DNA from: an uncultured Verrucomicrobiae bacterium
GTDB lineage: Bacteria; Verrucomicrobiota; Verrucomicrobiia; Chthoniobacterales; UBA10450
Assembly: GCA_963756875.1 (NCBI GenBank)
Contig: CAVWPA010000001.1
Coordinates: 668,689-732,688, forward strand
Direction of reading: 5' to 3'
DNA: 64,000 nucleotides
The notes below the pieces were generated by a model, which saw nothing but the letters and a program-made list of their open reading frames with translations, was not told the origin of the DNA and did not search any database. The position numbers were made by a program, and so were the translations under genes. Shown here in pieces: positions 1 to 31,419 of this stretch (within the stretch, counting starts at the first letter, position 1; the number at the start of each line of letters is the position of its first letter).

Positions 1-759
1 GGTGGTGAGCGCGCCCTCTTTGAAATAAGACATCCAAAGCAGGTTCTGGTAGTCGCGTAAACCTCCGCATCCGTTCTTCAGATGCGGCTCCTGCATATAA
101 ACGCTGTCGCCGAATTTGCTGTGACGCGCCGCCTGGTCTCGCATCCGCATCTCCACGTATTCGCGTTCGAAGCCCTCGACACATTTGAGCCGAAATTGCT
201 TGCGAAAATCGTCCGCCATCCCAGGCTCGCCCGCGATATGGCGCGACTCCAGCATCGCGGTTTTCGTTTGCATGTCGCGATTTGCCTGCGCGATGGCTTC
301 CTTAATGGATCGTGTGGAGTGGCCTACCTTGAATCCGATGTCCCAAAGCAGATAGAGAATTTGTTCCGCCATTTCCTCGATGTAAGGCGAGATTTTCCCG
401 CCGTTGCCGCCGTGCAGTAACATGAAATCCACATCGCTGAATGGATTGAGCTCGCCGCGGCCATAACCACCAAGCGCGATGAGCGTCAGCGGGGTTTCCG
501 TTAGTCCCAGCGCTTGGCCCGTGGCGGCCGCCGCCGCGGCGAAAATATGACGCAGAAGAACATCAACCAGGTCCACCCGGCGCGCGCAAATTTCGCGGCC
601 TCCTCCACCGGCCCGATGTTTCAAAAGCAAACGGTGCTCTTCGATCTTGAGGAATTTTTTGTAAATCGGCAGGACCTCGGTAGGTCGCTGCGCACCCGAG
701 ATCGAGAGTTGTTCTTCTGCGTGCGCCAGAACCTGTTCCAGATGTCGAGACTTCGGCAT
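1..759 (-). CDS. glnD: [protein-PII] uridylyltransferase, N-terminal part (runs off window)
   Basis: Manual translation from ATG at 759 (not in ORF track): MPKSRHLEQVLAHAEE...ALGGYGRGELNPFSDVD (NTase motif)...LWDIGFKVGHSTR...QEPHLKNGCGGLRDYQ, typical GlnD motifs. Confidence 0.93.
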   Translation of the reverse strand, partial: MPKSRHLEQVLAHAEEQLSISGAQRPTEVLPIYKKFLKIEEHRLLLKHRAGGGGREICARRVDLVDVLLRHIFAAAAAATGQALGLTETPLTLIALGGYGRGELNPFSDVDFMLLHGGNGGKISPYIEEMAEQILYLLWDIGFKVGHSTRSIKEAIAQANRDMQTKTAMLESRHIAGEPGMADDFRKQFRLKCVEGFEREYVEMRMRDQAARHSKFGDSVYMQEPHLKNGCGGLRDYQNLLWMSYFKEGALTT

Positions 760-765
760 TACGGA

Positions 766-1101
766 TTACGGATTACGGATTGCACTGCCACCCAATCTAA
801 AAGCGAAAACCCAAAATCCAAAATGGTACTCGGACCTCCGAATAACTTCTGTGCCCTCGGTGTCGCTCGGGAACGTTAGGGGAACGCACGCGCCTCGCGT
901 GCGATGCCAGTCCGGATCGGACTTGCGACGCCATCGCCGCAATGCGAGGGGGTAGAGATCGATCGCGTAACGCTTCAACTTGTTATAAAGCGTTCGGCCG
1001 TCTCCGTGACGTAAACCATGCCTGCTCAAAAGCGCCTCGAGCGTCAGCAGAATGGGGCACTCATCGTCGATGATCAGGATCCGGTGATTCTCTTTCCTCA
1101 T
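766..1101 (-). pseudogene. Internally deleted NtrC-type response regulator remnant
   Basis: Receiver start RILIIDDE..ILLTLEALLSRHG joined directly to the Fis-type HTH end RTLYNKLKRYAI; no AAA+ domain. Confidence 0.6.
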
Positions 1102-1802
1102 GAGGAATGGCGTTCGTTAGACAACGGCAATGTCACCGTCGTAAGCAGCGCCGATGCCGCCGCGTCGTACTCAGCGTCCAATTTGCCTCCGTGCGCTTCG
1201 ATGATCGCGCGTGCGCGGCTCAACCCGAGACCATAATGACCCTGGCTCACTTTGCGCAGCGGCTCGCGCCCCCAATTTTCCGTGCTCAAATCGAATCGCC
1301 TCTTTGGCTCGCGCAACGTGAATACAAGGCGGTCCTTGTCGATATGAGCTTTCACGGCTGGCGCCCCTTCACCCGGCTCGTGCTGAAACGCGTTTGCGAA
1401 AAGCTCCACGAACGCTTGCAGCAACAGTTGCGGATCGATGTTCAAATCGGCGTCGCCGACTTGCATGTCCCAGGTGGTCGTCGCAGCCTCGCCGGCAAAA
1501 TCATTTGTTACTCTATGTTTCAAATCGCCCAGGAAATCAGCCAAGTCATAGGAGATGAAAACAGGATTGACCTCGGCCAGCGCGCTGCTGAGACGTTGCA
1601 GGTTTGTGCCCACTTGAGCGACCATCTCACGCAGTCGCTGGATTTCGCTTTTGAGCTCGGCATTCTCCGTGAGCTCACTGAGATAGGCGGATTGCAGTTC
1701 GACCGCGTTCAGATTGTTTCGAAGATCGTGATTCAACTGCCGAACAAACCGAACCATGTCGCTCCAGGCAATATCTCGATTTTGCGAAGGCAATGTTGCC
1801 AT
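1098..1802 (-). CDS. Histidine kinase-like protein (HisKA + HATPase, no sensor domain)
   Basis: H-box LNHDLRNNL, N-box ELFANAFQH, G2 GLGLSRARAIIEAHGG. Confidence 0.8.
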   Translation of the reverse strand: MATLPSQNRDIAWSDMVRFVRQLNHDLRNNLNAVELQSAYLSELTENAELKSEIQRLREMVAQVGTNLQRLSSALAEVNPVFISYDLADFLGDLKHRVTNDFAGEAATTTWDMQVGDADLNIDPQLLLQAFVELFANAFQHEPGEGAPAVKAHIDKDRLVFTLREPKRRFDLSTENWGREPLRKVSQGHYGLGLSRARAIIEAHGGKLDAEYDAAASALLTTVTLPLSNERHSS

Positions 1803-1817
1803 ATTCAGGGGTAATTT

Positions 1818-3398
1818 CTATTGGTCTGCCAGCGAAAATCGATCTTCCACCGGCTGGTCGCCTGTAGACACCTCGACCCGCGGATCGTTGGCGGCCAGGT
1901 GGCGCAGCGTGTGAAACACATCTTCGGGATCGGCATCGATGGCGCGGGCGATTTCCTCCGCGGTCTGGCCGGCGCCGGACGAAAGTTTCTCGCGCACTCG
2001 TGCCTGGAGCTGCAACAGCTTTGTCGCCGCCTTTTTCCCGGCTTCCACTCCCGGTTGATGATACGCGTTGATATTCACCAGCGATCCATAAAAGCCGACT
2101 GCCCGTTCGTACAGCGCGATTAACGCGCCGATGTTAAACGCATCGACCTCCGGAATGCCCACCGTGATCGATTCGCGTCCCTTTTCGTAAAGCGCCGCGC
2201 GCGTGCCACGTAAAAATCCGTGCAAATAATCGCCGCTGGTGACTCCTTTTTCCACTTCGAACCGGCCCGCGCTGCGGTCTTTGTTTACTTCGATGAAGGT
2301 CACAAAAAAATTGAGAACGCCATCGCGCAATTGTTGCACATAGGCGTGCTGGTCCGTTGAGCCTTTGTTGCCGTAAACAGCGATCCCCTGGTGCACAACC
2401 TTTCCGTCGAGATCCTTTTCCTTGCCTAACGACTCCATAACGAGCTGCTGCAGGTATCTGCTGAACAACAGGAGCCGATCTTTATAAGGCAGGATCACCA
2501 TGTCTTTTTCACCCTTGCCGTTCCCGGCGTAAAACCACATCAACGCCAGCAGCATCGCTGCATTCTCCATCACATCGGTCGCGCGAGTGTGTTCATCCAT
2601 CGCGGCCGCGCCGGCAAGAAAATTGTCGATCTCGAAACCTTGCAAGGCCATGGACACCAATCCAACGGGGCTCATCACCGACGTTCTGCCGCCTACCCAG
2701 TCGTGCATGGGAAAATGAGCCAGCCATCCATTTTTCTCCGCGTATTTGTCCAGGTCGCTTCCAACTCCCGTTACCGCAACGGCCTGTTTGGTAAAATCAA
2801 TTCCCCTTTGTTTGAATCGCGCCGCCGCTTCCAGCATTCCATTGTGCGTCTCTTTGGTGCCCCCCGACTTCGAGATCACAACGACAAGTGTCTGGGCGAG
2901 CCCGTTCCCGATCTTGTCGAAGACGCGATCGAATCCGTTGGGATCGGTATTGTCGAAGAAGTAAATATCCATCGGGTCGCCTGACGCTCCGAGCGCTTCG
3001 GAGACGAATTGCGGTCCCAGCGCCGAACCGCCAATTCCGATCGACAAAATGTGAGTAAATTTATTCCCGTCGGCTGCCGCGATCTTTCCTGCGTGCACGT
3101 CGGCCGCGAATTTCTTTATGCGCGCGTTGGTTTCTTCGATCTCGGCGCGCAATTGCGCATTCGGCGCAAGTGCCGGGTTGCGCAGCCAGTAATGACCAAC
3201 CATTCGCTGTTCGTCCGGGTTGGCGATTGCGCCGGCCTCCAGTTCCCGCATCGCCGCGAATGCCTTCTCGATCTTTGGCCGCATTGTTTCGAAGAAATCG
3301 TCCGGAAATTTCATCCGGCTGATATCGATCGAAAAATCGAGGTCCTCGTAATGCAAAAAATACCGCTGGAACCGGGACCAAAGCGAAGAAAACGCCAT
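1818..3398 (-). CDS. pgi: Glucose-6-phosphate isomerase
   Basis: [44 protein letters not shown]. Confidence 0.97.
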
Positions 3399-3517: not shown

Positions 3518-3988
3518 TTACCATTGCAAAATATTTAACTCGCCTTGATAAGGCCAGTCTCCGGAACGGTCGGTCAGCCCGGCACGAACGGGGTTTTGTT
3601 CGACATATTCCCATTTGTCCCGGTAATTTTCGTCTCGCCGCAATTGCGTGTCCCAAAAATGTCGCTGCCAGATCGGCGCGTCCTCGCGCTGCGCCCAATG
3701 CCGCGCCGCGTGCGATTTCCAAAGAGCTACCCATTGCATTAAGGGTTTGGGAACCAAGTCAGCCGGCGCGCAAAAGAGATGGATGTGATCGGGCATAATC
3801 ATATACCTTCCGACAAGCCAGGACCGCGCATCAACCCATCCTCCTCGCAAGAGTTCGTGGGCCGCGCGGTTTGCAAAAATCGGCTTACGATGTTTTGCGC
3901 AAACCGTTAGAAAAACGATGATCGGCGTGTTATGACGCTGCCGGACCGGCGAATGCGCCGGATGTCTGCGGCCAGCGTTTTCTTCCAT
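3518..3988 (-). mobile_element. REP-associated tyrosine transposase (RAYT, HUH Y1 family)
   Basis: FLTVC, MPDHIHLF (HUH), WQRHFWDTQLR, YVEQNPVRAGL, WPY; flanked by REP hairpins. Confidence 0.92.
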
Positions 3989-5364: not shown

Positions 5365-5375
5365 AGGGGATCACT

Positions 5376-5900
5376 GTAGCGGCAGGCGTGTCGCCTGCAA
5401 TCCTCTGTAGCGGCGGTCTACCTGTCGCGCCGTAGCCTTGGCGAAGGCGGATGACCGTCGCATTTAACCGCGGATGACGCTGGATGTTCTCTGACCAAAG
5501 GGCAACGAGACGACAGGGCAACGAGACAACCGACCACAGCGCCGGTTTGGGAATTGTAGGGCAACCGCATCGGTTGCCATGTTTTGGTTTGGCAAGCGGA
5601 GCGCGTGCCCTACAACGGCAGGCGTCGCCTGCAATCTCCTGTAGCGGCGGTCTCGCCATAGAGGGCGAAGGGCGAAGGGCGAAGGGGTAAGGGCTAAGCG
5701 GCAAGGGGTTCGCCGGCAAGGGCCAAGGGGCAAGCGCATAGGGCGACAAGACCACAGGACGATAGGAGCATCGGAGCTTTCACAAAAGGTAACGAAGGCA
5801 ACGAAGTAGCCCCAGAATCCAGGACCTCTTCTTCTTCCAATCCGCAATCCGCACTCGGCAATCGATTCCCCCTTAGCCCTTCCCTCTTACCGCTTTGCTC
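5376..5900. repeat. Cluster of GTAG REP hairpins, palindromic mini-elements and heptamer arrays
   Basis: GTAGCGGCAGGCGTGTCGCCTGC (5376), GTAGCGGCGGTC.. (5407, 5641), GTAGGGCAACCGCATCGGTTGCC (~5557), AGGGCGA runs (~5662-5700). Confidence 0.75.
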
Positions 5901-8200: not shown

Positions 8201-10009
8201 CAAGCCGCGGAGAACACGCCGCCGTTGAGCAAATCCGATTGCGCCCAGTGCAAGCGCCGCGACAAGCCAGGTGCTGGGCTCGGGAACGGGAACAATCTCG
8301 TAGAAGCCGTTGCCCAACGCAATTTGTGTGGCAGATATTCCGCCGAAACTAAAGTCACCTAGATTCCCAGCCAGAGCCTGATCTGATTGAAGATCAGACG
8401 GTCGTCTGTGTTATCAACACCCGAGATCCCGCTTGGTGCGAAAGCACTGCTGGTCCAATTAAAATGTCCAACACATTCGAATTCGGGACAAAACTTGCAA
8501 AAGTGAGTGTGCCGACTCCACCGGTTCCGAAATCCAGCGTGGAATTCAGTCTCAACGTTAACGCCCCCAGTCCGACAGCGCTTGTTCCCGTGTGACTCGC
8601 ACCGCCATCAGTCGTGCTGGCCCCTGTACCTTCGCTGGCCGTCCCAGTTCGTGCCAAAGTTCCCGCAGCGCCTGCGATGGTGCCGAGTGCGATTCCCGCA
8701 AGAAATCAGTGACGCGATTGAGATTTCCCGTGCCGCTCAAGAGAAGTGTCCCGCCGCTATTGACGGTAACTCCGGAAGTCGATGCGAGCGCGCCGGACGC
8801 CGCCGCCTCTAGCGTGCCACCGTCTACGCTGGTGGTGCCGGAGTAGGTATTGTTACCTTGGTAAATTACCGTTCCGACACCGAGTTTTTGAACATTGTTC
8901 GTGTTGCCATTATTGTTCGTAATTTGGCCCGTGACAGTTTTCGTTTCGCCGGTGTTCGCTGTGTACGTAATCGTGGCAAGATCGGCAACTGAAACGCTTC
9001 CAAAAAAGGCGTCACTATTGTTCCAGCCGCGGTTAAAGAAAGAAAAGCTGTCGAGAGAGGCCCCCGGATATTCCGCCTAAAGTGACCCGACATTGTAAAC
9101 TGCCCCGCCACCTGAAACGGTGAAATTGTACTCGTTGGTGGATACGAGCGTGAATGTATAAGTTAGTCCGCCAGCGAATGAGCGATCCAGGTAAACCCGC
9201 ACTCTGGGTGCCGCTATCGTAAATCTTAGCGGAGCTGTCGCCCCCGGTATAATGAATATTCGAAGCGACCTCCGGAATTGTAGTCCTGTTAACGCTGGAG
9301 GCGCTTGTTCCATTGTTCAGACTGAACCCAATTGAACGGCCCTGTATGCCGGGACTTGAACTCCCGTTCATGGTGACAAATACCTGGAATGACTGACCTA
9401 CTTGAAGCGAAATCTGAGTACCCCCAAGCGAACCATCCGTTGTAAAAGGATGGAACACCACAGCCTGAGAATACTACCAAAGTTGCCGTTTCCCCATTAG
9501 CGTAAAGCCGGGTTGCTTCCACTCGTCTGCTCAGGCGCCAGCATATGGCGCGGAAAAATTATCTTGAGTCTGTATCGTAAAATTACTTGTCGAGCTCGTG
9601 TCGGTCCGAGAGTCGTCGACTGTATGGTATCACCTCCTCCGCCGCCGTGGATCGGGATGGGCAAGATGTTATCGCCGCCGCCGCCGCCGCTTACTGGCGG
9701 AATTGGTTGGATGTTATCGCCGCCTGAGCCTCCGCCGCTAACCGGCGAGAGGCTGGTTGATCCTCCTCCGCCAGAGGCTACGGCGGACAAGGAGGACGTT
9801 GAAGCGTTAACGGGTTGAAGCGTTGAATCGGAGGAGCTTGAAGAAGCTTTGCGGGCTTTGACGAGATCGCGAGCATCATTCGACTCCGCTGGTTGCGCGC
9901 CCGCGAAGAGAGTTACGCTGCTGCAAATCAGCAGAAATGGGACAACAAGACCACGGACAACGGACCGAACGGACCACGGGAAAGCGGGGTGCCGTGCGAG
10001 TGCACACAA
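8153..10009 (-). CDS. PEP-CTERM protein with autotransporter-associated beta-strand repeat, unit 1 (multiple frameshifts)
   Basis: Signal-like N-terminus, Gly/Ser linker, KLGVGTVIYQGNNTYSGTTSVDGGTL repeat; ends EIVPVPEPSTWLVAALALGAIGFAQRRR (VPEP at 8287). Confidence 0.7.
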
Positions 10010-10149
10010 CGCGCGTAAACCCTGTGTAAGGCGGTATCCACTTTTTAGGGACTTTTTAAGGGGCTAATCGGAACAATTTCTCTACCGCGCGATCACATCA
10101 ATTTCAGAGGGAAAAGTCAATCCAAATTTTGCCTGAAATTCCAGAAAAT

Positions 10150-10450
10150 TTGACCACGGATTTCACGGATTTTGGCGGATGGGATTTTGCTTCGCGGTAA
10201 GGGGTAAGGGCGAAGGGCGAAGGGCGAAGGGCGAAGCGGTAAGGGGTAAGGGGTAAGGGCGAAGGGAAGAGAGCATGGAGCACGGAGCGTGGAGCGGGGA
10301 GACTCAAGGGGTAAGCGGGAAGGGGGAAGGGCGAAGCAGAAAACGCCTCTCCGAACCGTATGGCTCTACGAGTAGGAGGCGAACGCTCAATTCCGAAATC
10401 AGATTTTCACAGAAGGAAACTAAGGGAACGAAGGCGAAGGGAAAGAAGCG
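10150..10450. repeat. Mosaic heptamer/palindrome repeat block
   Basis: AGGGCGA, AGGGGTA, GGAGCA(T/C) units; CCACGGATTTCACGGATTT; GCCTCTCCGAACC..GGAGGC; CACAGAAGGAAAC..GAAG. 10233-10332 recurs at 11235-11334. Confidence 0.85.
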
Positions 10451-10490: not shown

Positions 10491-10796
10491 TCACTTCCCG
10501 GGTTCGCTTAATCGGTCTTTCCAGTTCTGCGGCTTTCTCGAAGCGTGAAAAACCGCCACGACGTGAACGGTTTCTTGCAGGATAATGTAGAAGACGGAGA
10601 AAGGGAACCGACGCGTTATCGCCTGTCGCACATTATCGTGCACGACGGGATACATTTCCGGATGCCTCTTAATCTGGTCGAGACTAGCCTCTATGGCGCG
10701 AATGAACTCAGCACCAAGTCCTCTGTCGCGTTCTTCATACCATTGATATGCTTCGGCAAGATCGAGTTGCGCTTCGGGTCTGAAGATGATTATCAC
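10491..10796 (-). CDS. RelE/ParE family toxin
   Basis: IIFRPEAQLDLAEAYQWYE...RFPFSVFY...VVAVFHASRKP; GTG start overlaps the antitoxin TGA. Confidence 0.9.
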   Translation of the reverse strand: MIIIFRPEAQLDLAEAYQWYEERDRGLGAEFIRAIEASLDQIKRHPEMYPVVHDNVRQAITRRFPFSVFYIILQETVHVVAVFHASRKPQNWKDRLSEPGK

Positions 10797-11014
10797 GGCG
10801 CTTCGAGAACCCGCCGCTTGACCTCTTCCCATGGAGATCCCGCTTCAGGATTCTTGCGAAGAGCCTCGAGGCGACGATCCAGTTCTGCGCGCTGAGCGTC
10901 GGTAAGAGGAGGTCGAGTTTGCGTCGTGGCGATTGAATCCCAAATATCTTCAACCAGCTGAATCCGCTCCGAAACGCTCAAATCGAGGAGATCTGCCGCA
11001 GAAATTTTGCTCAT
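10793..11014 (-). CDS. Addiction module antitoxin (TIGR02574-like)
   Basis: LSVSERIQLVEDIWDSI...QRAELDRRL...PWEEVKRR. Confidence 0.9.
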   Translation of the reverse strand: MSKISAADLLDLSVSERIQLVEDIWDSIATTQTRPPLTDAQRAELDRRLEALRKNPEAGSPWEEVKRRVLEAP

Positions 11015-11129
11015 GAAGCCAAATCGTATCATCCGAGAACCCGCAGGGCAAGATTCGCATAGTGAAAGTGCGCAGGGAAGTCAGACGTCAGAAATTCTAA
11101 AAAACTGAAAAGTCCGCCTGCGAAGCGGA

Positions 11130-11580
11130 ACGACCCCGAAGGCTTTCGGGGCTGAAACGGATGTTTCACAGAAGGAAACGAAGGGAACGAAGGGGGAGGA
11201 ACGCAAAGCGGTAAGGGCGAAGGAAGGGCGAGGGGAAGCGGTAAGGGGTAAGGGGAAGGGCGAAGGGAAGAGAGCATGGAGCACGGAGCGTGGAGCGGGG
11301 AGGCCTCAAGGGGTAAGCGGTAAGGGGGAAGGGCAGGGAAAAACCACCAAATTCCAAGCACCAAACCTCAGGGAAACTTCAAGCTCCAAGCTTCAAGGGT
11401 TACGGAGCGGCGGGGATGCAGAGAGGTAAGGGGTAAGGGCTAAGGGCGAAGGGCACGGAGCATGGAGCGGGGAGCATGGAGCGGGCGGAAAAGCATTCTC
11501 ACAGAAGGCAACGAAGGGAACGAAGGGGGAGGAACGCAAAGCGGTAAGGGGCAAGGGCTGGGAAAAACCCCAAGCTCGCC
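11130..11580. repeat. Mosaic repeat block between the two TA pairs
   Basis: Left part matches 10233-10332; right part (11315-11550) matches 12236-12507. Confidence 0.85.
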
Positions 11581-11713: not shown

Positions 11714-11989
11714 ATGGTGAGGTTTGAATGGGACGAAAAAAAGGAGGCAGCCAACATCGCCAAGCACGGCGTCGATTTCACGGAGGTGCAACGCGCGTTT
11801 TTGGATCCGCGTCGACTGGTTTTCGAGGATCGCGCCCATAGCGGGAACGAGCCGCGTCTGCTGTGCATCGGCAAAACGGCCCGCGGAATTTTGAGCGTCC
11901 GTTACACACGTCGAGACGGACGTCTTCGTATCATCGGCGCGGGTTACTGGAGAAAGGGCAGGAAAATGTATGAGAAAGAAAACGGTTAA
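11714..11989 (+). CDS. BrnT family toxin
   Basis: FEWDEKKEAANIAKHGVDF...EPRLLCIG...RIIGAGYWRKG. Confidence 0.92.
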   Translation: MVRFEWDEKKEAANIAKHGVDFTEVQRAFLDPRRLVFEDRAHSGNEPRLLCIGKTARGILSVRYTRRDGRLRIIGAGYWRKGRKMYEKENG

Positions 11990-12221
11990 ATACACAGACG
12001 ATAAAGGCGAGCTCACGGGCGATTGGCATCGCATCAAGGACGATCTGCCTTCGCCGGATGAACTCGCAGGCGAAATCAGCAAGCGAACTAAAATTACCCT
12101 TGAGCTGGACGATGAGGCTCTGGCGTTTTTCAAACGCGAGGCGAACCGAAGGCACACCAGCTACCAACGAATGATCCGGAATCTTGTCCGATCGTACGCC
12201 AGGGCAGCGTCTTCTCGCTAA
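11970..12221 (+). CDS. BrnA/CopG-like antitoxin
   Basis: KITLELDDEALAFFK...YQRMIRNLV; overlaps the brnT 3' end. Confidence 0.85.
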   Translation: MRKKTVKYTDDKGELTGDWHRIKDDLPSPDELAGEISKRTKITLELDDEALAFFKREANRRHTSYQRMIRNLVRSYARAASSR

Positions 12222-12610
12222 AAGAGCAAAGCGGCAAGCGGTAAGGGCGAAGGGCAGGGAAAAGCCACCAAATTCCAAGCACCAAACCTCAGGGAAACTT
12301 CAAGCTCCAAGCTTCAAGGGTCACGGAGCGGCGGGGATGCAGAGAGGTAAGGGGTAAGGGGTAAGGGCGAAGGGCACGGAGCATGGAGCATGGAGCATGG
12401 AGCGGGGAGCATGGAGCATGGAGCAGGGAGCAGGGGGAAGGCGGAAAAGCATTCTCACAGAAGGCAACGAAGGCAACGAAGGGGGAGGAACGCAAAGCGG
12501 TAAGGGCTAAGGGCAGGGAGCATGGAGCAGGGGGAAGGCGGAAAAGCATTCTCACAGAAGGCAACGAAGGCAACGAAGGGGGAGGAACGCAAAGCGGTAA
12601 GGGCGAAGGG
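12222..12610. repeat. Mosaic repeat block with internal ~80-bp tandem duplication
   Basis: Copy of 11315-11550 with extra GGAGCAT units; ~12428-12508 is repeated at ~12525-12605. Confidence 0.85.
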
Positions 12611-12978: not shown

Positions 12979-13425
12979 TTGTTAGTCGTTATCAGTTATC
13001 AGGTTATCGGTTATCGGAAGAATCTCACAGAAGGAAACGAAGGGCCAAGCGTCAAGGGGTAAGGGCAAGGGAAAGTAGAAAGCAGTCTCACAGAAGGAAA
13101 CTCCGAAAGCTTTCGCGAGCAGGCGAAGGTAACAAAGGGGTAAGTGGTAAGGGCGAAGAAAACGCCGAACGCCGAAGTCAGAACGTTTCTTTGTCTTGTC
13201 ACTCATCACTGTGTCACTTGGGAAGGCAGATCTGCAAAAGAGTTGGAACTTGGAGCTTTGGAATTTCTCTGGTGCTTGGTGCTTGGAACTTGGGGTTTCG
13301 CAGCGCGGCTGCGCGCTGCCTTCGGTTATCTGTTATCAGTTCTCTGTTCTCTGTTTCTCGTCCTGTCTCTGTCCTGTCCTCTGTCCTCTGTCCTCTGTCC
13401 TCTGTCCTCTCCTCTGTCACCTGGG
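12979..13425. repeat. Mosaic heptamer block (TTATC[A/G]G, CTTGG[A/T]N, CTCTGTC)
   Basis: Successive 7-bp-period runs of different sequence. Confidence 0.85.
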
Positions 13426-13699: not shown

Positions 13700-13752
13700 T
13701 GAGAGGAATTAAAGAAAAAAGCGGAAGTTAGAAAAGGAAAAAATAGGCGGCA

Positions 13753-13935
13753 GGGAGCACGGAGCAGGGAGCAGGGAGCAGGGAGCTGGGAGCTGGGAGC
13801 TGGGAGCTGGGAGCTGGGAGCTGGGAGCTGGGAGCTGGGAGCTGGGAGCTGGGAGCTGGGAGCTGGGAGCTGGGAACTGGGAACTGGGAGCTGGGAACTG
13901 GGAGCAGGGAACTGGGAGCTGGGAGCTGGGAACTG
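13753..13935. repeat. Tandem heptamer array GGGA(G/A)C(T/A), ~26 units
   Basis: Directly visible GGGAGCT run with GGGAGCA/GGGAACT variants. Confidence 0.95.
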
Positions 13936-16268: not shown

Positions 16269-16525
16269 GAAGGGAAGTTTTAAGTCTTAAGTTTTAAGCT
16301 TTAAGTAGAACCGCGGATTTCCCGCCACGGCGGGCATGGCGAATGACGAAAGAAGAAGAGAGAAAACGCCGAACGCCCAACACCGAACGTCCAACGTCCA
16401 ATGGAAGACCAAGAAATGACGAATGGCGAAGGAGATCGCAGCCGACACGGCTGCCTCCACAGCGGCAACAGAAAAGAGGAGAAAGGCACGGATCAAAAAC
16501 TCTGGAGAAAGGTCGTTTCCGGATT

Positions 16526-18268
16526 CTACTTTGTTTCGATCAGATTGGGAAGAAGCTTGGCGAATTGCTGGTCGGCGATGGAATCGTCGGCCTCCGGGGG
16601 TATCAACATGATCAGTTCGAACACCTGTTGGCCGCGGTTGCGGATCCCGTTTCGCACGACACGCCAGCGGTCGGCCCAATCCCAATTGGAATACAAGCCG
16701 GCGGCTGCCCCGGCGCCCATTTCCGTTTTGTGAGCGACATCTTCGTGCAGAGTGAAAAACGCGACGGCGTGCAACGGCGGCCCGCCGCGGTTTGGCTTGA
16801 CGAAATCGAATCGCCGGAAAGGAAGGGATCGATTCGGACCAACAAGGTAACTCTCGATTCGAGCCTTCCCCACTTCTCGCCAGCCGGCCGCCGGCAGACA
16901 GATGTCCGGCCGGTGCGCGCGCGCGCGCAAAATGGTTCCGCTGCCGGGGTTCCAACGGAAGAAGAAAAGATAATCAACGGCGGAACGGGGCGCCGCGGCG
17001 GGGCTGTTTTCTCTCGGGGTCCAGGCGACTTCGCGGCCCGAATCGAAGCGCAAAATGTTGCGCACTTCGCTGTCGATCTTTAGCTCGCGATAGCCCGGCT
17101 CATTGTTTGGCCATCGCACAGACCATCCGGGCCTGACGACCAGGTCGCGTTCGTGGATCCGATACCAGAACTCCGCGCCAATCTCGGCTACGATCACCCA
17201 CAAAAGGAGAGCGGCGGAAAAGTAGAAAGTAGAACGTAGAAAATTGAAACCCGAGGCTAACCTCCGGCCTCTGACCTCTGGCTCCGGCTCCGTAGAGGCG
17301 ACGCCTCGGAGAGGCTTCTGATCTCCGTGCTCCAAGCTCCCAGCTCCCGGCTGATGATGCGTTTTCCACCGCGACGCGATCCACATTGTCCCGATAAAGA
17401 CCAGCACCACGATGGCGTAACCGGCGACATCGTGCCACCGGCTGAGTGCGGCGAGTCCGTCGGCCGACGCGATCCACACCAAAAAAGTCGCGCGCAAAAA
17501 ATTGGCGAACAACGCGATGGCGACCGCGCTGGCGATGAGAATGAAGCGGGGACCCAGGCGCAACCGTTTTAGCTCGCCGAAAAGAAGACCGATAGTCAGC
17601 GAGGTTTGAAGCGAGCGCACACCGCTGCAGGCTTCGTTCACCCCGACCAGTCCGTGCGGAAGCGCGATCAGGTTGCCTTGCACTTCCGCGGGAATGCCGA
17701 ACAACGCCAATACCTCGGCCGCGCTCGCCGCGATGATGCGCATGAGACCTTGCACAATCGGTTCCTCGATCGGCGTCGGCCACGGCACCGCCACGAAAAA
17801 GAAGAGCACCGGAAAACTGAAATGGCGGAGCCAGCGTGTTCCGCCGGCAAGATAAATCATCGACAGCGTGATGGTCGCCACAGCCGCGACGTGCACCCAT
17901 CCGAGCGGCCGCCAATCGGCGCTGCCGATTTCAAAGATGCGCAGCGGCAACAAGATCAACGCCGCGCCGATGATCAGCGCAATCGCTGCCGATTTGGGAT
18001 TTGGGGTTTGGGGTTCCGGGTTTTACCGGCTGGGCCGATCTTCCCAACGCAGCCAGAACAGGTATGCCGCGAAGAACGGGACGAACCAGCCGTAGTTATA
18101 TTGTTCGTTAAAACTCCATTCGTCGCTGAGATACCGGCAGACAACGAACCAGAGCGCGCCGAGGGCGAGCACGAGGAGAATAAAGGTCGTACGGTTGGGC
18201 GCGCGATCGGTTGCGACCAAATTTGTGCTGCTGGCAGACTCTACGGCGGATTGCGCGTCCAAGCCCAA
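16526..18268 (-). CDS. Exosortase fused to EpsI-like C-terminal domain (frameshift near 18020; start approximate)
   Basis: EWSFNEQYNYGWFVP, FAVPWP-like motif, VNEACSGVRSL (catalytic Cys), ANFLR, WHD; C-terminal HRPDICLPAAGW. Confidence 0.88.
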
Positions 18269-18444: not shown

Positions 18445-19332
18445 GTGCTTCCCACTCAACAGATTCTTGGAATTCGATTTTTCGACGGGAACGTCGATCA
18501 GGCGGTCGATCGCATGTTTCGCGACGGCGGATTTCTAGTCGCGCCGTCCGGGACTTGTTTCGCGCGGTTGCGCCGCGACGCGGCGTATCGCGACGCGGTG
18601 ACTCAGGCCGATGTCGCGATTCCCGACAGCGGCGCGATGGTTACTTTCTGGAAACTTTTTCGGGGACGCGCGCTGACCCGCATTTCCGGGCTGAAATATC
18701 TTCAACATGTGTGCGCGCGATTGTTTGCCGCAAAATCGCGAACCCTTTGGGTCCTGCCTAACGAACGCGCCCTGCAAAAGACCATAAAATGGTTACGTAC
18801 AAATCAATTCGCAATCGACCAGGACGACTTTTACATCGCGCCAATGTACGCCGAGCCGGTGCAGGACCCCGGCCTGCTCGCACTGATCGAAACGCGCAGA
18901 CCGGAGCACGTGATCGTGGCGATCGGGAGCGGCCCGCAGGAAAAGCTGGGCCATTATTTGCGCGATCGTTTGAGTTACCGGCCGGCCATTCATTGCATCG
19001 GCGCTGCGCTCGGATTTCTGACCGGCGACCAGATCAAAATTCCCGACTGGGCGGACCGGCTTTATCTTGGCTGGTTCCTTCGATTGCTTGCACAGCCGCG
19101 CGTTTTTATTCCGCGACTGACGCGCGCGGCACAATTACCGCTGCTCATTTATCGCTATGGAGAGAAATCCGCCGCCGCTCGCGGCAGCGCAGAGGACAGA
19201 GGACAGAGGACAGAGGACAGAGGACAGAGGACAGAGGACAGAGGACAGAGGACAGAGGACAGAAAACAGCTGACAAAAGACCGGGAAAGACGAAGTAACA
19301 GGCTATGCAAATCGAATCAGCAAAAGATTTGA
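18445..19332 (+). CDS. WecB/TagA/CpsF family glycosyltransferase
   Basis: QILGIRF, ADVAIPDSG, RISGL, IGSGPQEKLG, CIGAALGFLTG..IPDWADRLYLGWFLRL; the tail is translated AGAGGAC repeat. Confidence 0.88.
   Translation: MLPTQQILGIRFFDGNVDQAVDRMFRDGGFLVAPSGTCFARLRRDAAYRDAVTQADVAIPDSGAMVTFWKLFRGRALTRISGLKYLQHVCARLFAAKSRTLWVLPNERALQKTIKWLRTNQFAIDQDDFYIAPMYAEPVQDPGLLALIETRRPEHVIVAIGSGPQEKLGHYLRDRLSYRPAIHCIGAALGFLTGDQIKIPDWADRLYLGWFLRLLAQPRVFIPRLTRAAQLPLLIYRYGEKSAAARGSAEDRGQRTEDRGQRTEDRGQRTEDRKQLTKDRERRSNRLCKSNQQKI
19191..19263. repeat. Perfect (AGAGGAC)x10 array
   Basis: 70 bp exact repeat at 19191-19260. Confidence 0.95.
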
Positions 19333-19688
19333 ACGTGTACAAAATTGCGTATGAGCTCGCGATGGAGATTTTTGAAGCCACGAAAGGATTTCCGGTTGAA
19401 GAGACGTATGCCCTAACGAGCCAGATTCGCAGGTCTTCAAGATCAGTTTGTCTGAATTTGCGTGAGGCATGGGCAAAACGACGTTATGAAGCTCACTTTC
19501 TGAGTAAGCTGACTGATTGTGATGGAGAAGCGAATGAGACAGATTCTGCGATCGATTTCGCGAAGGACTGCGGTTATATCCCACACGACCAGCATGAAAC
19601 GCTCGTCGCCAAATGCACGGAAGTGCGCCGAATGGTCGGCGGAATGATAAACAAGCCCGAGGCCTTCATTGTTCCGGGGAAGCTGTAG
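19305..19688 (+). CDS. Four-helix-bundle protein (23S rRNA IVP / TIGR02436-like)
   Basis: DLNVYKIAYELAMEIF...FPVEETYALTSQIRRSSRSVCLNLREAWAKRRY...DGEANET. Confidence 0.93.
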   Translation: MQIESAKDLNVYKIAYELAMEIFEATKGFPVEETYALTSQIRRSSRSVCLNLREAWAKRRYEAHFLSKLTDCDGEANETDSAIDFAKDCGYIPHDQHETLVAKCTEVRRMVGGMINKPEAFIVPGKL

Positions 19689-19733: not shown

Positions 19734-19790
19734 CCTCTGTCCGCTGTTCTGCCTGTTTTCTGTCCTCTGTTACCTGTCCTCTGTCCTCTG
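19734..19790. repeat. Degenerate (GTCCTCT)n array, reverse complement of 19191-19260
   Basis: CCTCTGTCCGCTGT...GTCCTCTGTTACCTGTCCTCTGTCCTCTG. Confidence 0.85.
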
Positions 19791-19792
19791 GA

Positions 19793-22133
19793 ATGAACAT
19801 CCTCGGCCTTAACGCTTACCACGGCGATTCCGCCGCTTGTTTGTTTGTCGATGGCAAACTCGTGGCCGCGGCCGAAGAGGAACGCTTTCGGCGGATCAAG
19901 CATTGGGCCGGTCTGCCCACGAACGCCATCGATTATTGTCTGCGCGAGGCGCAATTGTCCGTGGCGCGAGATCGATCATATCGCAATCAATCGCAAGCCA
20001 GGCGCCAACAACCTGCGGCGGCTGGGCTTCGTTGTTTCCCGCTGGCCGCACCCGAAATTGATGCTGCAGAAAATCCGGAACATTCGCAGCGCGGCCTCCA
20101 TCAAGGAAACGCTGGAGAAGGCGTACGGAATCGAGCTGAAAGCCCAGGTCCACCACGTCGAGCATCACCTCGCGCATCTGGCTTCGGCGTTTCTCGTTTC
20201 CGGATTCAACGAGGCGGCCTGCATCTCGATCGACGGGTTCGGCGACTTTGCCAGCACCGCATTCGGGTTCGGGCGCGGCAGCGAGATCAAAATCGACAAC
20301 CGCGTTTATTTCCCGCACTCGTTAGGCATCTTTTATTCCGCGCTCACCCAGTTTATCGGATTCCCGAATTACGGCGACGAATACAAGGTGATGGGACTGG
20401 CGCCTTACGGTGAGCCCACGTTTTTCGAGCAGATGCGCGAGATCGTTCGCATCCGGCCGGATGGCACGTTCCGGTTGAATTTGAAATATTTCCGGCACCA
20501 CAGCGACAACGTTTCTTACACGCTGGAAAGATTGCGCCCCGGAAGTCGGACCGCTTTACCGGAAAGAACTGGCCGATCTGTTAGGGCCGCCGCGAAAACC
20601 GGACGAGCCGCTCGAACAAAAACACAAGGACATCGCCCGTTCCGTCCAGACGATTTACGAGAAAGCGTTCTTCGAGTTGCTGCATGCGCTGCACAAAAAA
20701 CATCCGTCCGATAATCTCGCGTTGGCTGGCGGTTGCGCGATGAACTCGGTCGCCAACGGCAAGGTGTATCGCCGCACGCCGTTCAAGAAAATGTATCTGC
20801 CTGCCGCGGCCGGCGACGCCGGCGGCGCGATCGGGGCGGCCGCTTTTGTCCAATGTCAATTGGGCAAAAGCGAAGAAGATCGAAGTTCGAAGAATGAAGA
20901 TGGGTCCTCCAGCCGCCGAGCTGCCGTCTCCCAGCTACCAACTTCAACGGCGGTGTCCGCCTGGACTCCGCGATACTCTCGGCTCCCGAAGCGACACCGG
21001 AAGAACTGCACGCGCTGGTCGAATGGAAGAAAAAGGAGATCGCGGATGCCGGTTGCCCCATAGCGCTGATCACTGGTGAAGAAGAACTGGTGCGCAAAAC
21101 CGCGCAGGCCATCGCCGACGGAAAAATCGTGGGCTGGTTTCAGGGACGAATGGAATGGGGACCACGCGCGCTGGGGCACAGGTCCATTCTGGCCGATCCG
21201 CGCCGGGCCGACATGAAGGAAATTTTGAATGCGAAGATCAAACGGCGCGAATCGTTCCGGCCGTTTGCGCCTTCGATTTTACGAGAGGCGGTCGGGGAAT
21301 GGTTCGAACAGGAGGACGACGTTCCGTTCATGATGGAAGTGTTCCAGATCCGGCCGAAACATCGGGAGCTTATTCCCGCGGTCACGCACGTCGATGGGAG
21401 CGGCCGGTTGCATACCGTGACCAGGGAAACCAACCCGCGTTACTATGGCGTGATCGAACATTTTCGCGATCTGACCGAGGTCCCGATGGTTCTCAATACG
21501 TCGTTCAACGAAAACGAACCGATCGTCTGTTATCCGGAAGAAGCGCTCGAATGCTTCTTGCGGACGAAAATGGATGTGCTGGTGCTGGAAAACTTTTTCC
21601 TGGATCGAACCGGCGACGAGGGCGGGGAGGGCCAAGGGCAAAGAGCAAAGGGCAAAGAGGAAGCGGAAGGGCAGAGGAAGAAGCAAAGGGGAAAGAGCGG
21701 TAAGAGCGAGGAGCACGGAGCGAAGAGCGCGGAGCAGGGAGCGAAGGGCAAAGAGGGAAGCGGTAAGGGCGAAGAGGAAGAAGCAAAGGGCGAAGAGGGA
21801 AGCGGTAAGAGGGGAGCGAGGAGCAAGAGCACGGAGCAGGGAGAGAAAGGCAAAGAAAGCGAGAGCAAAGAGGAAGAAGCAAAGGGCGAAGAGGAAAGCG
21901 GTAAGGGCGAGGAGCGAGGAGCTAAGAGCACGGAGCAGGGAGCGAAGAGCAAAGAGGAAAGTGCAAAGGGCAAGGAAGAAGGAGCGCGAAGTGGCGAGCA
22001 GCTTCCAAAAGCAGAGGCGAAAGAGCAGGGGACAACCACCGAAGATAAGCGCGAGACGAAAACTGAGGAAGCTCCGATGAAAAAAGCCGAGCCGGAACCG
22101 CCTGTGAACGAGCTCGAAATCGGCGGCGCATGA
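19793..22133 (+). CDS. NodU/CmcH family carbamoyltransferase (several frameshifts) with low-complexity C-terminal extension
   Basis: MNILGLNAYHGDSAA..AAEEERF, HHLAHLASA, DGFGD, EYKVMGLAPYG, AGGCAMNSVANG, GRMEWGPRALGHRSILADP, KRRESFRPFAPS, NTSFNENEPIV. Confidence 0.9.
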
Positions 22134-22354: not shown

Positions 22355-22585
22355 ATGACGTTAACCGCCGACAGCAAGAAAAGAGTCGTGCTGCCCGGAG
22401 CGGCGCCCGGTGATGTTTTTACATATGAGCAGACCAGTCAGGGTGTGGTCCTGCGGCGTATTTATCGTCCTGAGCCCGGGAAAAAAAGGATGACCAAAAA
22501 ACAGGTTTTGGCGGAGATCCGAAAATGGAAAGCTCTCCGTGGCGTGAAATGGGAGGAGCTCCGTAAGCTCACCCGAGAGCCGTGA
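22355..22585 (+). CDS. AbrB-like antitoxin
   Basis: TADSKKRVVLP...PGD...GVVLRR; overlaps the PIN gene. Confidence 0.7.
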   Translation: MTLTADSKKRVVLPGAAPGDVFTYEQTSQGVVLRRIYRPEPGKKRMTKKQVLAEIRKWKALRGVKWEELRKLTREP

Positions 22586-23001
22586 TCCTGCTGGACACGA
22601 ATATAGTGGTCGATGCGCAGAATGAAGCGTCGCCTTTCTTCGAGCGGACCAGGAAGCTAATCGTCGAAGCCGTCGTCTCCACAGGCGCAGCCGTAAACAC
22701 GGTGATTTTGGCGGAACTCTGCGCAGGAAAGCGCGATATCGCCGACTTGATTCAATCCGAACTGCGTCGAGGAGGCGTTCAATTTTTCGATTTGCCCGCG
22801 AATACAGCGCCAATCTGCGGGGACGCTTATCGTAAGTATCGACTTTCAAGAAAAAAGTCGGCTGGAGGTAGCGCGCCAACAATGCCGTTGCCGGATTTTT
22901 TTATTGGCGCGCACGCGGAACTGATGGGTTGGAAACTGGCGACGCGCGACACGGAACGTTACCGGCTTTACTTTCCAAACGTGCAGATTATCGAGCCTTG
23001 A
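22582..23001 (+). CDS. PIN domain (VapC-like) toxin
   Basis: ILLDTNIV, LAEL, LPDFFIGAHA, LATRD..RYRLYFP. Confidence 0.92.
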   Translation: MILLDTNIVVDAQNEASPFFERTRKLIVEAVVSTGAAVNTVILAELCAGKRDIADLIQSELRRGGVQFFDLPANTAPICGDAYRKYRLSRKKSAGGSAPTMPLPDFFIGAHAELMGWKLATRDTERYRLYFPNVQIIEP

Positions 23002-23189
23002 GTGGGGCGATTGCGCCGCGATCGCAGTTATCCGTTATCGGCCTGCCATCGGACGGCCCCGAAAGCTTTCGGGGTTAACGGTTATCGGTTGCCGAGTTCA
23101 AAGCAGGGGAAGGGATTTAAACAGTCGCCACGGCGACTTCGTCAGACAGAAGGAGAAGACCGCTTAAGTCCGCGGTACTGCGCGGGCGC

Positions 23190-30200: not shown

Positions 30201-30402
30201 CGTTCACACCATAAATCCTCTCCCAAACGTCGCTCAATCCATCCTGGTCCAGATCGATCGCATCGACGCTGAGCAGTGCGCCACTGAACAAAGCGGCGCC
30301 GAACACGGCGCACAGCTTGCCCAACTTCCAACCCCTGGTGCGCGTCGCCCATCGTCTCCGCCGTCGTGCGGGAGAACCTGAGCGTATCTGGTTTCGCGGC
30401 AT
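24226..30402 (-). CDS. Giant secreted protein (~2000 aa if frameshifts are errors): Asp-rich Ca-binding repeats, duplicated nidogen-like/Ig modules, C-terminal alpha/beta hydrolase
   Basis: Five co-oriented ORF fragments; DxDGDGxxDxWE repeats; two LPFSFP(Y/F)FG..VSS(N/D)GF modules; VFVHGW..KRLWWQGYKGRF..AAHSMGN. Confidence 0.78.
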
Positions 30403-30738
30403 GGTTCAAAATAGGACCGCCGACGATAGTGAAGTCAGGCGTTGCCCGACAAGATGATTTCGTTCGTGAACGCCAAAAGTTATTCACAATGGACTTCGTT
30501 TTCCGACATCCGAACTCCGAAAGCCCGCCCTTAGCTTATCCCTTCAAAAATCTCACAGAAGATAACGCATCCAGCCCGTAGGCTTTCCTGGCCGGAGGCG
30601 AAGGTAACAAAGATCAGATGATCGCTGCATCCAGCCCCGAAATGCTTCGGCGTTGTCATGCTTCGCAGAGGACATCCAGAATCGAGCATCTGCCCCGCCA
30701 AACCCATCCGCGAAATCCGTGTAATCCGCGGTTAGATC

Positions 30739-30937
30739 TCAGGCGTTATCGAAACTCCAGCGCCGTCACGATCGCGATATTCGTGATGTGCGTTCCTTCT
30801 TGCGCGAGGGACTGATTCAGGTGGATCGTTTGCATGAGATGTTCGCACAAATTGAACCGGGCCTGATCCGGTATCCCGCGATTGATCCAGTCTCGTTTCG
30901 CGCCGCAGTCACGGAGTTTTGTGATGAAAACCGCTGA
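30739..30937 (+). pseudogene. C-terminal remnant of a DUF6036-like nucleotidyltransferase
   Basis: QALSKLQRRHDRDIRDV / LREGLIQVDRLHEMFAQIEPGLIRYPAIDPVSFRAAV; 5' part absent, abuts the ATCCGTGTAATCCGCGG repeat. Family recalled from memory. Confidence 0.5.
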
Positions 30938-31265
30938 CCTGATCGCCGGCCTGCCTGGGGAAACGCTGGTGCGAAAGGGTTTGTCTGATTTTCGGTCGGG
31001 CCGCTGCACCATTGCGGCTTGTCTGGTGGCCATCGCGCGCAGTCGACTGGCCGGCGCGGGAGTGATCCGCGATTCAGAAGCGCCCACGTTCGTTGAACCT
31101 GAGCTTCAACTTTATCGGCTGCTTCAACGGGAAGGGGGCGATCCCTATTCGCGATACAACGCTTTGCTGCGCGAACTGGTTAGCTTCGAACAAGCTTTGG
31201 ACTGGCGCCGCAGCAGACAACATCTGAGCGAAAAGACTCGCCCCGGCAAGGTTTCCGACGTCTGA
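30924..31265 (+). CDS. Hypothetical protein, probable partner of the upstream nucleotidyltransferase remnant
   Basis: LPGETLVRKGLSD...ELQLYRLL...YSRYNALLRELVSFEQAL; start overlaps the remnant's end. Confidence 0.7.
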   Translation: MKTADLIAGLPGETLVRKGLSDFRSGRCTIAACLVAIARSRLAGAGVIRDSEAPTFVEPELQLYRLLQREGGDPYSRYNALLRELVSFEQALDWRRSRQHLSEKTRPGKVSDV

Positions 31266-31419
31266 TCTCGCGTTTTCCGCTCAGGCTTCGACGTTTTCTT
31301 CGCCCCGGCTCTTACCGCTTACCGCTTCGCGCTTGGCATTGCTAATCCCGAAGGCTTTCGGGGCCGTCCGCTGGCAGGCCATTAACCTATAACCGGTAAC
31401 TGCGCGTCTGCGTGGACCC

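Follow-up and report, generated by a model that had tools for sequence, protein, structure and literature searches.

The stretch of DNA analysed here (the window, 64,000 nucleotides) corresponds to G000:C1:668689-732688, where G000 is a 2.69-Mb assembly in three contigs with 57% G+C. Its left part carries many short tandem arrays with a repeat unit of seven bases, and a small four-helix-bundle gene of the PF05635 (TIGR02436) family lies between two of these arrays. The host is a Candidatus Udaeobacter-like member of the Verrucomicrobiota, a soil lineage represented by a metagenome-assembled genome (MAG), and G000 is the sole member of its genus among the genomes compared. The isocitrate dehydrogenase (ICDH) encoded at 4054–5364 is 86–89% identical to its counterparts in MAGs that bear the labels Candidatus Udaeobacter, Spartobacteria, Chthoniobacterales or Verrucomicrobiota. 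Heptamers of the short tandemly repeated repetitive (STRR) class have reportedly been known in cyanobacteria since 1990 (Mazel 1990), and are also reported to occur inside the cyanobacterial RNase P RNA gene (Vioque 1997). A first-pass annotation of the sequence had set the arrays in this context, but the ICDH comparison places the genome among Udaeobacter-like Verrucomicrobiota and not among cyanobacteria. The strict STRR class is that of heterocystous cyanobacteria, whereas the host found here belongs to the Verrucomicrobiota, and the G000 units presumably do not include the STRR consensus units.

The period of the arrays in the window is almost constant. Tandem Repeats Finder (TRF) gives 96 rows for the whole window, of which 43 have period 7 and many lie at the multiples 14 and 21, compared with two rows of period 6 and three rows of period 8. 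Forty-one of the 43 period-7 rows fall within 758–21973, and the remaining two, at 31311 and 36358, are all that the right two thirds of the window contain. The 7-bp unit of changing sequence that the first-pass annotation had described for the left segment is therefore real, and all but two of its examples were located (Table 1). The two exceptions are weak: near 23030 a small palindrome has just two units to its left and two to its right, which stay under a TRF score of 30, and CTTGGNN at 13245 is seen only as TGGTGCT ×2.4 (13270–13286).

The excess extends to the genome and to its relatives. We counted exact arrays of at least 2.5 copies throughout G000 and compared them with three third-order Markov simulations. 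Period 7 gives 134 arrays against 1, 4 and 1 in the simulations, and period 6 gives 100 against 19, 11 and 16; the counts for period 8 (5 against 1, 1 and 1) and period 9 (10 against 0, 0 and 1) are far smaller. A looser measure of lag matches detects 375 period-7 domains, covering 15.5 kb, versus 36 domains of period 8. The period-7 excess is far above chance, and period 7 exceeds periods 6 and 8 in both window and genome, a comparison that the annotation had proposed to make. Sixty distinct canonical units are represented among the 134 exact arrays, which concentrate in four hot spots, one of them the left part of the window. In 12 Udaeobacter-like ICDH loci (155 kb), the exact arrays number 13 for period 7, two for period 6 and one for period 8. 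Samples of 400 kb from G017, G012, G024 and G005 hold 21, 18, 14 and 5 period-7 arrays, respectively, versus 0, 2, 5 and 0 of period 8, and the units AACGCCG, AACGTCC, AATCCGC and AATGACG are common to G000 and the sampled relatives. With a crude gene model (2318 genes, 84% coding), 82 of 151 merged arrays in G000 (TRF score of at least 40) are intergenic, 43 lie within 200 bp of an open reading frame (ORF) end and 26 are internal, while called intergenic DNA makes up 16% of the genome; 23 of the 151 lie within 60 bp of a called 5′ end. The repeat observation is confirmed.

The PF05635 gene of the window is located in the loop of a structure built from two arrays. In the fold of a 641-nt stretch the two arrays pair over ∼65 bp into a long-range stem that encloses ORF 19305–19688, and the minimum free energy (MFE) is −252 kcal/mol compared with a shuffle mean of −202 kcal/mol (z = −5.7; none of 20 shuffles is as good). 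To our knowledge, PF05635 has no known catalytic, nuclease or transposase motif. Of the control genomes, Bacteroides thetaiotaomicron was the single one to carry PF05635. We examined the best PF05635 gene of each of 30 genomes and found a period-7 domain within 200 bp downstream in 13, upstream in nine and on both sides in six. The baseline for 2315 called G000 genes is 6.6, 6.0 and 1.3%, respectively, so the enrichment of arrays beside TIGR02436 genes that the annotation had proposed to look for is present; the binomial p values of ∼6e-09 and 5e-07 are overstated, because related genomes are not independent. The downstream arrays mostly begin 0–20 bp past the stop codon. In all six two-sided cassettes the upstream arm is the purine-rich one, and the downstream arm is its reverse complement. 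The samples of G017, G012 and G024 contain five further PF05635 copies; all five have an array on at least one side, and their arms include AACGCCG and AATCCGC types. Five octamer-rich genomes of other families contain 14 PF05635 genes, 11 of which have flanking arrays of period 7 or 8.

The association also holds in numbers across the phylum. For 301 Verrucomicrobiota genomes, array density was represented by a heptad proxy, an AAC-anchored pattern with a reversed, CAA-anchored control; PF05635 matches were taken at E ≤ 1e-08, and PF05635 and the Y1 transposase domain (Y1_Tnp) were scored on the best ∼14–15 candidates per genome. Among these partly related genomes, PF05635 copies and heptad counts give a Spearman ρ of 0.69; the partial value is 0.64 when genome size is held and 0.56 when Y1 copies are held as well. 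Where PF05635 is without a match (95 genomes), the median is one heptad hit and 4% of genomes reach at least 20 hits, compared with a median of 85 hits and 84% for the 45 genomes with at least six copies. The correlation is positive in all ten families with at least eight genomes (ρ from 0.20 to 0.77), and the family-centred rank correlation of 0.60 is reached by none of 2000 within-family permutations. The period-8 pattern gives a ρ of 0.19 with PF05635. Period-8 typing covered the genomes with about five or more hits, and 30 of the 301 are octamer-dominant (G269, G298, G207, G246, G135, G301 and 24 others), some of them in families that also hold heptamer-dominant genomes. This lineage-specific preference for 7 or 8 argues against one universal geometric cause.

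The unit of the flanking arms follows the phylogeny of the gene. AACTCTC/ATCAACY arms flank the PF05635 genes of loci L239, L240, L241, L245 and L251, which lie within one supported clade; ACTCGTC arms flank those of L242, L243 and L247, and TTAAG arms those of L246 and L248, each set again within one supported clade. Unit families confined to single PF05635 clades indicate that gene and arrays are inherited together. PF05635 is the only factor with both a physical and a numerical tie to the arrays, by association and by co-inheritance. The first-pass annotation had named the four-helix-bundle protein as a local candidate for a mechanism that generates or recognizes the repeats; its association with the arrays stands, both at individual loci and over the 301 genomes, and a generating or recognizing role is something that we infer.

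Structurally, the arrays occur as single arrays, as inverted pairs that form hairpins, as in-frame inserts in permissive loops and as two arms round a PF05635 gene. Neighbouring arrays in G000 are related by inversion in 18 pairs, compared with 4.3 expected from shuffled units, and a looser test on 154 adjacent domain pairs finds 42 inverted and 14 direct. The handedness is fixed within a family: AACGYCS hairpins have the C-rich arm first in 12 of 12 cases and AATCCGC hairpins the G-rich arm first in five of five. Over the 42 inverted pairs, 24 are C-first, 14 G-first and four mixed, so a general rule of the G-rich arm first fails in G000. A small number of unit families reappear at many loci and in different genera. 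These features support the view that the arrays belong to dispersed structured elements, namely hairpin modules and the gene cassette, and are not isolated products of slippage.

The same elements are found within essential genes. Thirteen ORFs with internal arrays were fetched, and all 13 frames are open across the arrays. Twelve of the 13 have housekeeping Pfam domains: DXR, UvrC, ThiC, MiaB-like and HpnH-like radical-SAM enzymes, TGT, MetH, UvrA, MqnA, aconitase, UvrB and ThrRS. The predicted translations of the inserts are hydrophilic repeats of seven residues, of the types RRTPNAE, AIRNPQS, SQLSTLN and ASSIQHP. The frames of the window are likewise open across their arrays in the TPR-protein gene (14685–14755), the exosortase ORF (17219–17242) and the tail of ORF 21090–22133 (21634–21985). 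For two of the enzymes we compared orthologous sites, as the annotation had suggested, and both show empty and differently filled versions. The DXR insert lies between FQCLEGK and VRRIILTASGGPF, where six genomes are filled and 20 other relatives are empty. In G000 the insert adds 35 residues, and its DNA folds to a stem of ∼45 bp with an MFE of −64 kcal/mol as RNA. G017 and G012 have shorter AACGYCC hairpins, G016 has the single arm (AACGCCG)5, G011 has other units (GATCCYC within GATGCTG/CAGCATC) and G013 has a non-repeat hairpin. A single origin of this insert was rejected: the six filled genomes are not one clade in a one-gene tree (AU test, p = 3.9e-05; at least three changes are forced by starred branches), and gains or losses have thus recurred. 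In TGT, ∼15 of 25 relatives have inserts of 8 to ∼80 residues at one site. G000, G010, G011, G012, G015 and G017, which represent six genera, have a common insert start with differing units (AACGCCS, AACACCC, AACTCTC, ATCAACY and AATCCGC), which shows directly how an old insert retains its 7-nt period while the sequence drifts. No target duplication is evident by eye at the DXR or TGT junctions. Three unpublished genomes (G002, G007 and G014) contribute only empty rows or short non-repeat inserts to these alignments.

GC-rich palindromes resembling repetitive extragenic palindromes (REPs) also lie in frame in variable loops of housekeeping proteins. They occupy the TGT insert site of G016 and G003 (L133 and L135) and are found in G000 in ThiC (L088) and MetH (L092), and the encoded peptides are of the GSARASRA and SRDP...LRFARND types. 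The MetH ORF (G000:C2:23183-27799) is stop-free over 1538 aa and holds, in frame in a linker, a complete Y1 domain of the REP-associated tyrosine transposase (RAYT) type with HVH and YxxxNP motifs (L092:2939-3513; G000:C2:26121-26695). This domain is flanked by inverted REPs, and an AATCCGC array is located just downstream of it.

The constancy of the period has to be read together with the relationships among the units. Units grade into one another within arrays, as in the longest array of the window (Table 1), and at 10196–10295 AAGGGCG-type units turn into GAGCATG-type units with the register unbroken. When in-phase adjacent units that differ by one base are linked, the resulting network has few components, the largest of which holds 79 of 225 units. 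AACGCCG, AACGTCC, AATGACG, GGAGCAT, GGGAGCT and CAGCATC share one component, and the other units named by the first-pass annotation fall into five more; the network is weak evidence, because a sequence space of this size can be expected to yield links by chance. In the annotation's argument, slippage by itself should not single out one period when the sequences are unrelated. The constant period holds, but the units are not unrelated, as the gradients, the connected families and the TGT insert show, so this argument is weakened. The gradients and the TGT case suggest instead that an existing array hands on its period. In-register slippage, mutation and re-amplification would together conserve the period, although they leave the choice of seven at the outset unexplained. 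Avoidance of stop codons was tried as a driver of unit choice and rejected: 99 of the 134 exact arrays are stop-free on both strands (74%), compared with 66–70% of random genomic heptamers.

The features of the window are collected in Table 1. In the interval 9797–14360 the arrays alternate with other elements, namely 9-mer repeats, a small palindrome, one REP copy and a number of dispersed modules, in agreement with the mosaic blocks of heptamers, REPs and palindromes that had been described there. Each dispersed module recurs 7 to ∼50 times elsewhere in the genome, and the module pattern CACAGAAGGNAACGAAGG occurs nine times in G000, whereas a search of 30 relatives gave no copy. The small palindrome, of the CCCCGAAAGCTTTCGGGG type, recurs in mosaic blocks at 11120–11145, 13095–13115, 13950–13970 and 23058–23078. 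Of the accessory genes, toxin–antitoxin pairs, a PIN gene, the PF05635 gene and a weak Y1_Tnp ORF are confirmed. The truncated nucleotidyltransferases of the first-pass annotation are not confirmed: a profile search gave no NTP_transf_2 (PF01909) match within 759–31363. In the whole of G000 there are three PIN genes and one or two ParE genes, and two of the three PIN genes are in array hot spots, numbers too small to weigh. Rfam and tRNA scans of 1–32000 found nothing, which places no rRNA there.

Several smaller observations concern individual blocks. At 758–781, AATCCGT ×3.4 on the minus strand ends right at the ATG of a 922-aa minus-strand gene ending at 759. The interval 5364–10490 (∼5 kb) has no confident gene and no Pfam (ORFs of at least 75 aa), Rfam or tRNA match, and mosaic blocks lie at its borders. 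At 12416–12610 a 97-bp unit, itself built of heptamer and 9-mer repeats, is tandemly duplicated with 96% identity, and the arrays of 12988–13418 are flanked by two small minus-strand genes (12632–12967 and 13433–13699). The carbamoyltransferase gene (19718–22133) is split over four overlapping ORFs and the exosortase gene (16526–18352) over two; these are either pseudogenes or products of long-read indel errors.

Table 1. Repeat arrays and associated genes in the window (positions are those of the window; ×n, copy number of the unit)
Feature	Position	Strand
Two short period-7 arrays (TRF): ATTACGG ×3.4 (at 758) and AATCCAA ×4.4	758..824	.
REP family copy (GGGA/GTAG-type palindrome, 99 genomic copies), outside the heptamer system	880..902	+
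Weak Y1_Tnp (RAYT-like) ORF, 24.8 bits; no array within 1.5 kb	3518..3988	-
Mosaic block upstream of the isocitrate dehydrogenase gene: AGGGCGA (×6.6 at 5662)/AAGGGGT arrays, GAAGGCAAC 9-mers, CAATCCG ×3.7	5662..5863	+
Purine-rich mosaic: GGTAAGG/AAGGGCG (10196–10266), then GAGCATG in unchanged 7-base register, then AAGGGGG, plus dispersed genome-repeated modules	9797..10440	+
ParE toxin and antitoxin pair; directly repeated mosaic blocks on both sides	10491..11032	-
Mosaic blocks (AAGGGCG/GGTAAGG, GAGCATG, GAAGGGAAC 9-mers) and degenerate CCAAGCN heptad module with ∼20 genomic copies	11171..11543	+
BrnT toxin and CopG-like antitoxin pair between directly repeated mosaic blocks	11714..12221	+
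GGTAAGG ×3.1, then GCATGGA ×8.4 (at 12374) grading to GCAGGGA	12346..12610	+
GTTATCG ×4.1 (at 12988), AAGGGGT, AACGCCG, TGGTGCT, GTTATCT ×4.4, CTGTCCT ×8.7 (at 13363)	12988..13418	+
Longest array: 26 heptamers, GGGAGCA to GGGAGCT to GGGAACT	13750..13935	+
Second REP copy of the window	14195..14217	
GTTATCA ×4.1 and CTGTCCT ×4.9 within the open frame of the TPR-protein gene 14355–16268	14685..14755	-
AAGTTTT ×4.6 and AACGCCG (at 16365)/AACGTCC arrays between the TPR gene and the exosortase gene	16275..16401	.
AAAGTAG ×3.4 (at 17219) and GCTCCCA ×3.4 within exosortase ORF 16526–17959	17219..17352	-
Upstream purine-rich cassette arm: perfect CAGAGGA ×10.6 (at 19190); WecG-family ORF 18211–19332 reads through	19190..19263	+
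Four-helix-bundle gene, PF05635 23S_rRNA_IVP, 105 bits, bAvd-like; in the loop of the array stem	19305..19688	+
Downstream cassette arm: degenerate CCTCTGT ×7.7, reverse complement of the upstream arm; overlaps the carbamoyltransferase ORF start	19735..19790	+
Arrays of AAGAGCA, GAGCGAG and AGAGCAA (16 copies) that make up the tail of ORF 21090–22133, beyond the end of the Carbam_trans_C domain	21634..21985	+
PIN gene	22582..23001	
Small palindrome with two GTTATCS units to its left and two to its right, beyond the PIN gene (weak example)	23027..23100	+

We compared these elements with known systems. Some 23S rRNA intervening sequences carry a PF05635 ('S23p', four-helix-bundle) ORF. The window cassette has the same layout, with a PF05635 ORF (105 bits) in the loop of a long inverted-repeat stem (z = −5.7), and six of the 30 relatives have two-sided forms. 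However, its stem consists of heptamers, and it lies between WecG-family and carbamoyltransferase genes and not in rRNA. Rickettsia palindromic elements reportedly lie in frame in essential genes (Ogata 2000), and the inserts described here can be likened to them by layout, as repeated palindromes in frame in essential genes with empty sites in relatives. The elements of G000 differ in having arms of tandem 7-nt repeats, so that each single-unit change shifts the frame, and in being much shorter and more variable. Compared with the REP doublets mobilized by RAYTs (REPINs), the arrays share hairpin-forming inverted doublets, many dispersed copies and a cognate small gene flanked by repeats; the array-linked gene is, however, a four-helix bundle, and the true REP/RAYT system of the genome is statistically unrelated to the arrays. 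Inverted arms, as in transposons and miniature inverted-repeat transposable elements, are present; no duplication is evident by eye at DXR or TGT, and no transposase is linked to the arrays.

The closest relatives of the arrays themselves are the heptanucleotide long simple sequence repeats (SSRs) and STRR. They have in common the head-to-tail 7-nt units, the excess over periods 6 and 8, the many units per genome and perhaps a location mostly outside conserved coding sequence. The Verrucomicrobiota host, the family-handed hairpins, the in-frame housekeeping inserts and the link to PF05635 are different, and the units presumably differ from those of STRR. According to PMC4692102, heptameric repeats were found in 2007 to be over-represented in many bacterial genomes, and a length-specific cause, the geometry of the polymerase, has already been proposed for them (Mrazek, Guo and Shah 2007, as quoted there). 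PMC4476775 describes a group I intron, that of the Nostoc tRNA-Leu(UAA) gene, whose P6b stem is built from seven-nucleotide motifs of two sequence classes. The likeness to our hairpins lies in a stem of complementary 7-nt motifs, two sequence classes with the same structure and one-sided single-unit indels; the P6b motifs and the RNase P STRRs belong to structured cyanobacterial RNAs, whereas the elements here occupy intergenic DNA, protein-coding loops and the surroundings of a protein gene. The GGGAATC/GGGGA(T/C)T repeats of Xanthomonas and Nostoc (PMC4692102) and the TAACTGA repeats of Beggiatoaceae (PMC4679880) are similar as intergenic arrays near gene ends, sometimes in convergent inverted pairs, that vary between close relatives. 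Each of those studies treats one unit, compared with 60 coexisting units in G000, and the commonest G000 units cannot form G-quadruplexes. According to PMC4679880 the TAACTGA repeats adjoin start codons, and the start-abutting array at 758–781 resembles them. We found no paper linking PF05635/TIGR02436 to heptamer repeats, and no publication on heptamer repeats in Udaeobacter or on in-frame inserts, in a search that was thin on subscription journals. The over-representation of heptamers as such is already published.

The explanation that we favour, and to which we give an even chance, is that the arrays are the Verrucomicrobiota form of the known heptanucleotide long SSRs, with the PF05635 cassette as an autonomous element. 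An existing array would grow, shrink and homogenize by slippage in the register of its unit. The period would be inherited, while point mutation followed by re-amplification would change the unit, and this would account for most of the constant period with variable sequence. The array–gene–array cassette may be the autonomous form of the element, or at least a co-inherited unit. The PF05635 protein, a relative of the nucleic-acid-binding Avd of diversity-generating retroelements, may bind or protect the repeat-built stem as RNA or single-stranded DNA, and such binding could promote the spread or retention of the arrays. The hairpins that have no gene would then be passengers or relics of the cassette.

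A number of observations weigh against this explanation. Against 375 period-7 domains, G000 has no more than three PF05635 genes, of which the window copy alone is bracketed by arrays. Four of the 95 PF05635-free genomes have at least 20 heptad hits, one of them 164. Outside the Udaeobacter-like group, 17 period-7 arrays and four of period 8 were counted in the remaining 68 ICDH loci, which come from many phyla and total 1.14 Mb, a low-level excess that fits the published over-representation of heptamers in many bacteria. Both periods, 7 and 8, are found round PF05635 genes of a single genome, and on the PF05635 tree the flanking period is unclustered (four changes; shuffling the labels gives 4.7 on average and a count this low in 116 of 500 runs; five period-8 rows), so the protein does not visibly set the length. 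AACGYCS, the commonest hairpin family of G000, is C-arm-first, whereas all six two-sided cassettes have the purine arm first, so simple loss of the gene from such a cassette would not produce these hairpins. Nor did the analysis reveal a mobility event, a target duplication, an excision product or an enzyme activity. The phylum-wide correlation, too, is one between a proxy pattern and thresholded best-candidate matches in genomes that are not independent, and Y1_Tnp has a raw correlation of its own with the heptads. We consider a wider version of the explanation rather doubtful, though worth stating: the PF05635 proteins would be the trans partner of a widespread, unrecognized class of selfish elements whose cis part is a stem of 7-nt (in some lineages 8-nt) repeats. 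The cassette would be autonomous, the gene-less hairpins in spacers and essential-enzyme loops would be non-autonomous progeny, and the bacterial heptamer excess (STRR, long SSRs) would largely be the footprint of this class and not of polymerase geometry.

The main rival, which we regard as somewhat unlikely but ahead of any other, is replication slippage with a polymerase preference for ∼7 nt and neutral accumulation, in which small PF05635 genes hitch-hike in repeat-rich permissive DNA as passengers. The polymerase-geometry hypothesis is in print (Mrazek 2007, as quoted in PMC4692102), and it agrees with the low-level period-7 excess in unrelated phyla, with the concentration of arrays in intergenic DNA, gene edges and variable protein loops, with the lack of enrichment of stop-free units (74% versus 66–70%), and with the existence of heptad-rich genomes that lack PF05635 and the few PF05635 genes of G000. 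A fixed geometry does not, however, predict that 30 of 301 genomes are octamer-dominant, some in the same families as heptamer-dominant ones, nor do passengers readily account for PF05635 clades that retain their own unit and for a period-7-specific correlation that survives adjustment for genome size and Y1. A few unit families recurring at many loci and across genera, with hairpin handedness fixed per family, also speak against this rival. Alternatively, the arrays and hairpins could be selected cis signals, such as terminators, mRNA stabilizers, processing sites or sites for a single-strand-binding regulator. Many arrays do stand right after stops or abut starts (758–781, the positions 0–20 bp past PF05635 stops, and the 23 of 151 within 60 bp of 5′ ends), proposals of this kind appear for TAACTGA repeats in PMC4679880 and for GGGAATC repeats in PMC4692102, and 7-nt motifs provide the pairing of the P6b stem in the Nostoc trnL intron (PMC4476775). 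Nevertheless, elements of this type lie inside the coding sequences of DXR, TGT, UvrB and others, where a terminator or cleavage site would harm; the orthologous sites are mostly empty or differently filled, so no conserved function is tied to the site; and there are 60 different units and no Rfam family match in 1–32000. We therefore judge selected cis signals to be improbable.

The first-pass annotation had also named the RAYT as a local candidate, by analogy with REPINs a Y1 transposase that recognizes or generates the heptamer blocks. G000 does have a REP/RAYT system, with 99 REP copies at up to four mismatches, many of them inverted doublets, and six Y1_Tnp matches; the complete RAYT-like domain in MetH lies between inverted REPs and 211 bp from a heptamer array, and the raw correlation between heptads and Y1_Tnp over the phylum is 0.47. 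This correlation falls to 0.08 given PF05635 and genome size, though, and the REPs are no closer to the arrays than random sites are, since eight of the 99 copies lie within 100 bp of a period-7 domain compared with 9% of random intergenic sites. Five of the six Y1 genes have no array within 1.5 kb. The RAYT model is thus largely refuted, and we hold it to be very improbable; the RAYT/REP system coexists with the heptamer arrays in G000 but is a separate system. Least probable of all, to the point of being negligible, is that the arrays are an assembly or sequencing artefact of a long-read MAG. The split carbamoyltransferase and exosortase genes could be indel errors of this kind, but similar arrays with common units are present in the independent assemblies of many relatives, and 13 ORF frames are open across arrays.

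With regard to its meaning, the link gives a testable suspect for the heptamer puzzle, a small gene family that is bracketed by arrays and whose copy number predicts their abundance across the phylum. The preferred period varies by lineage between 7 and 8, which counts against one universal geometric cause, though the slippage rival keeps some probability. In-frame invasion of essential genes in one of the most abundant soil lineages matters for protein evolution, for the calling of genes in MAGs and for ideas on how rRNA intervening sequences arose. If the reading as a class of selfish elements is true, it would recast the STRR and long-SSR excess as the footprint of the PF05635 system.

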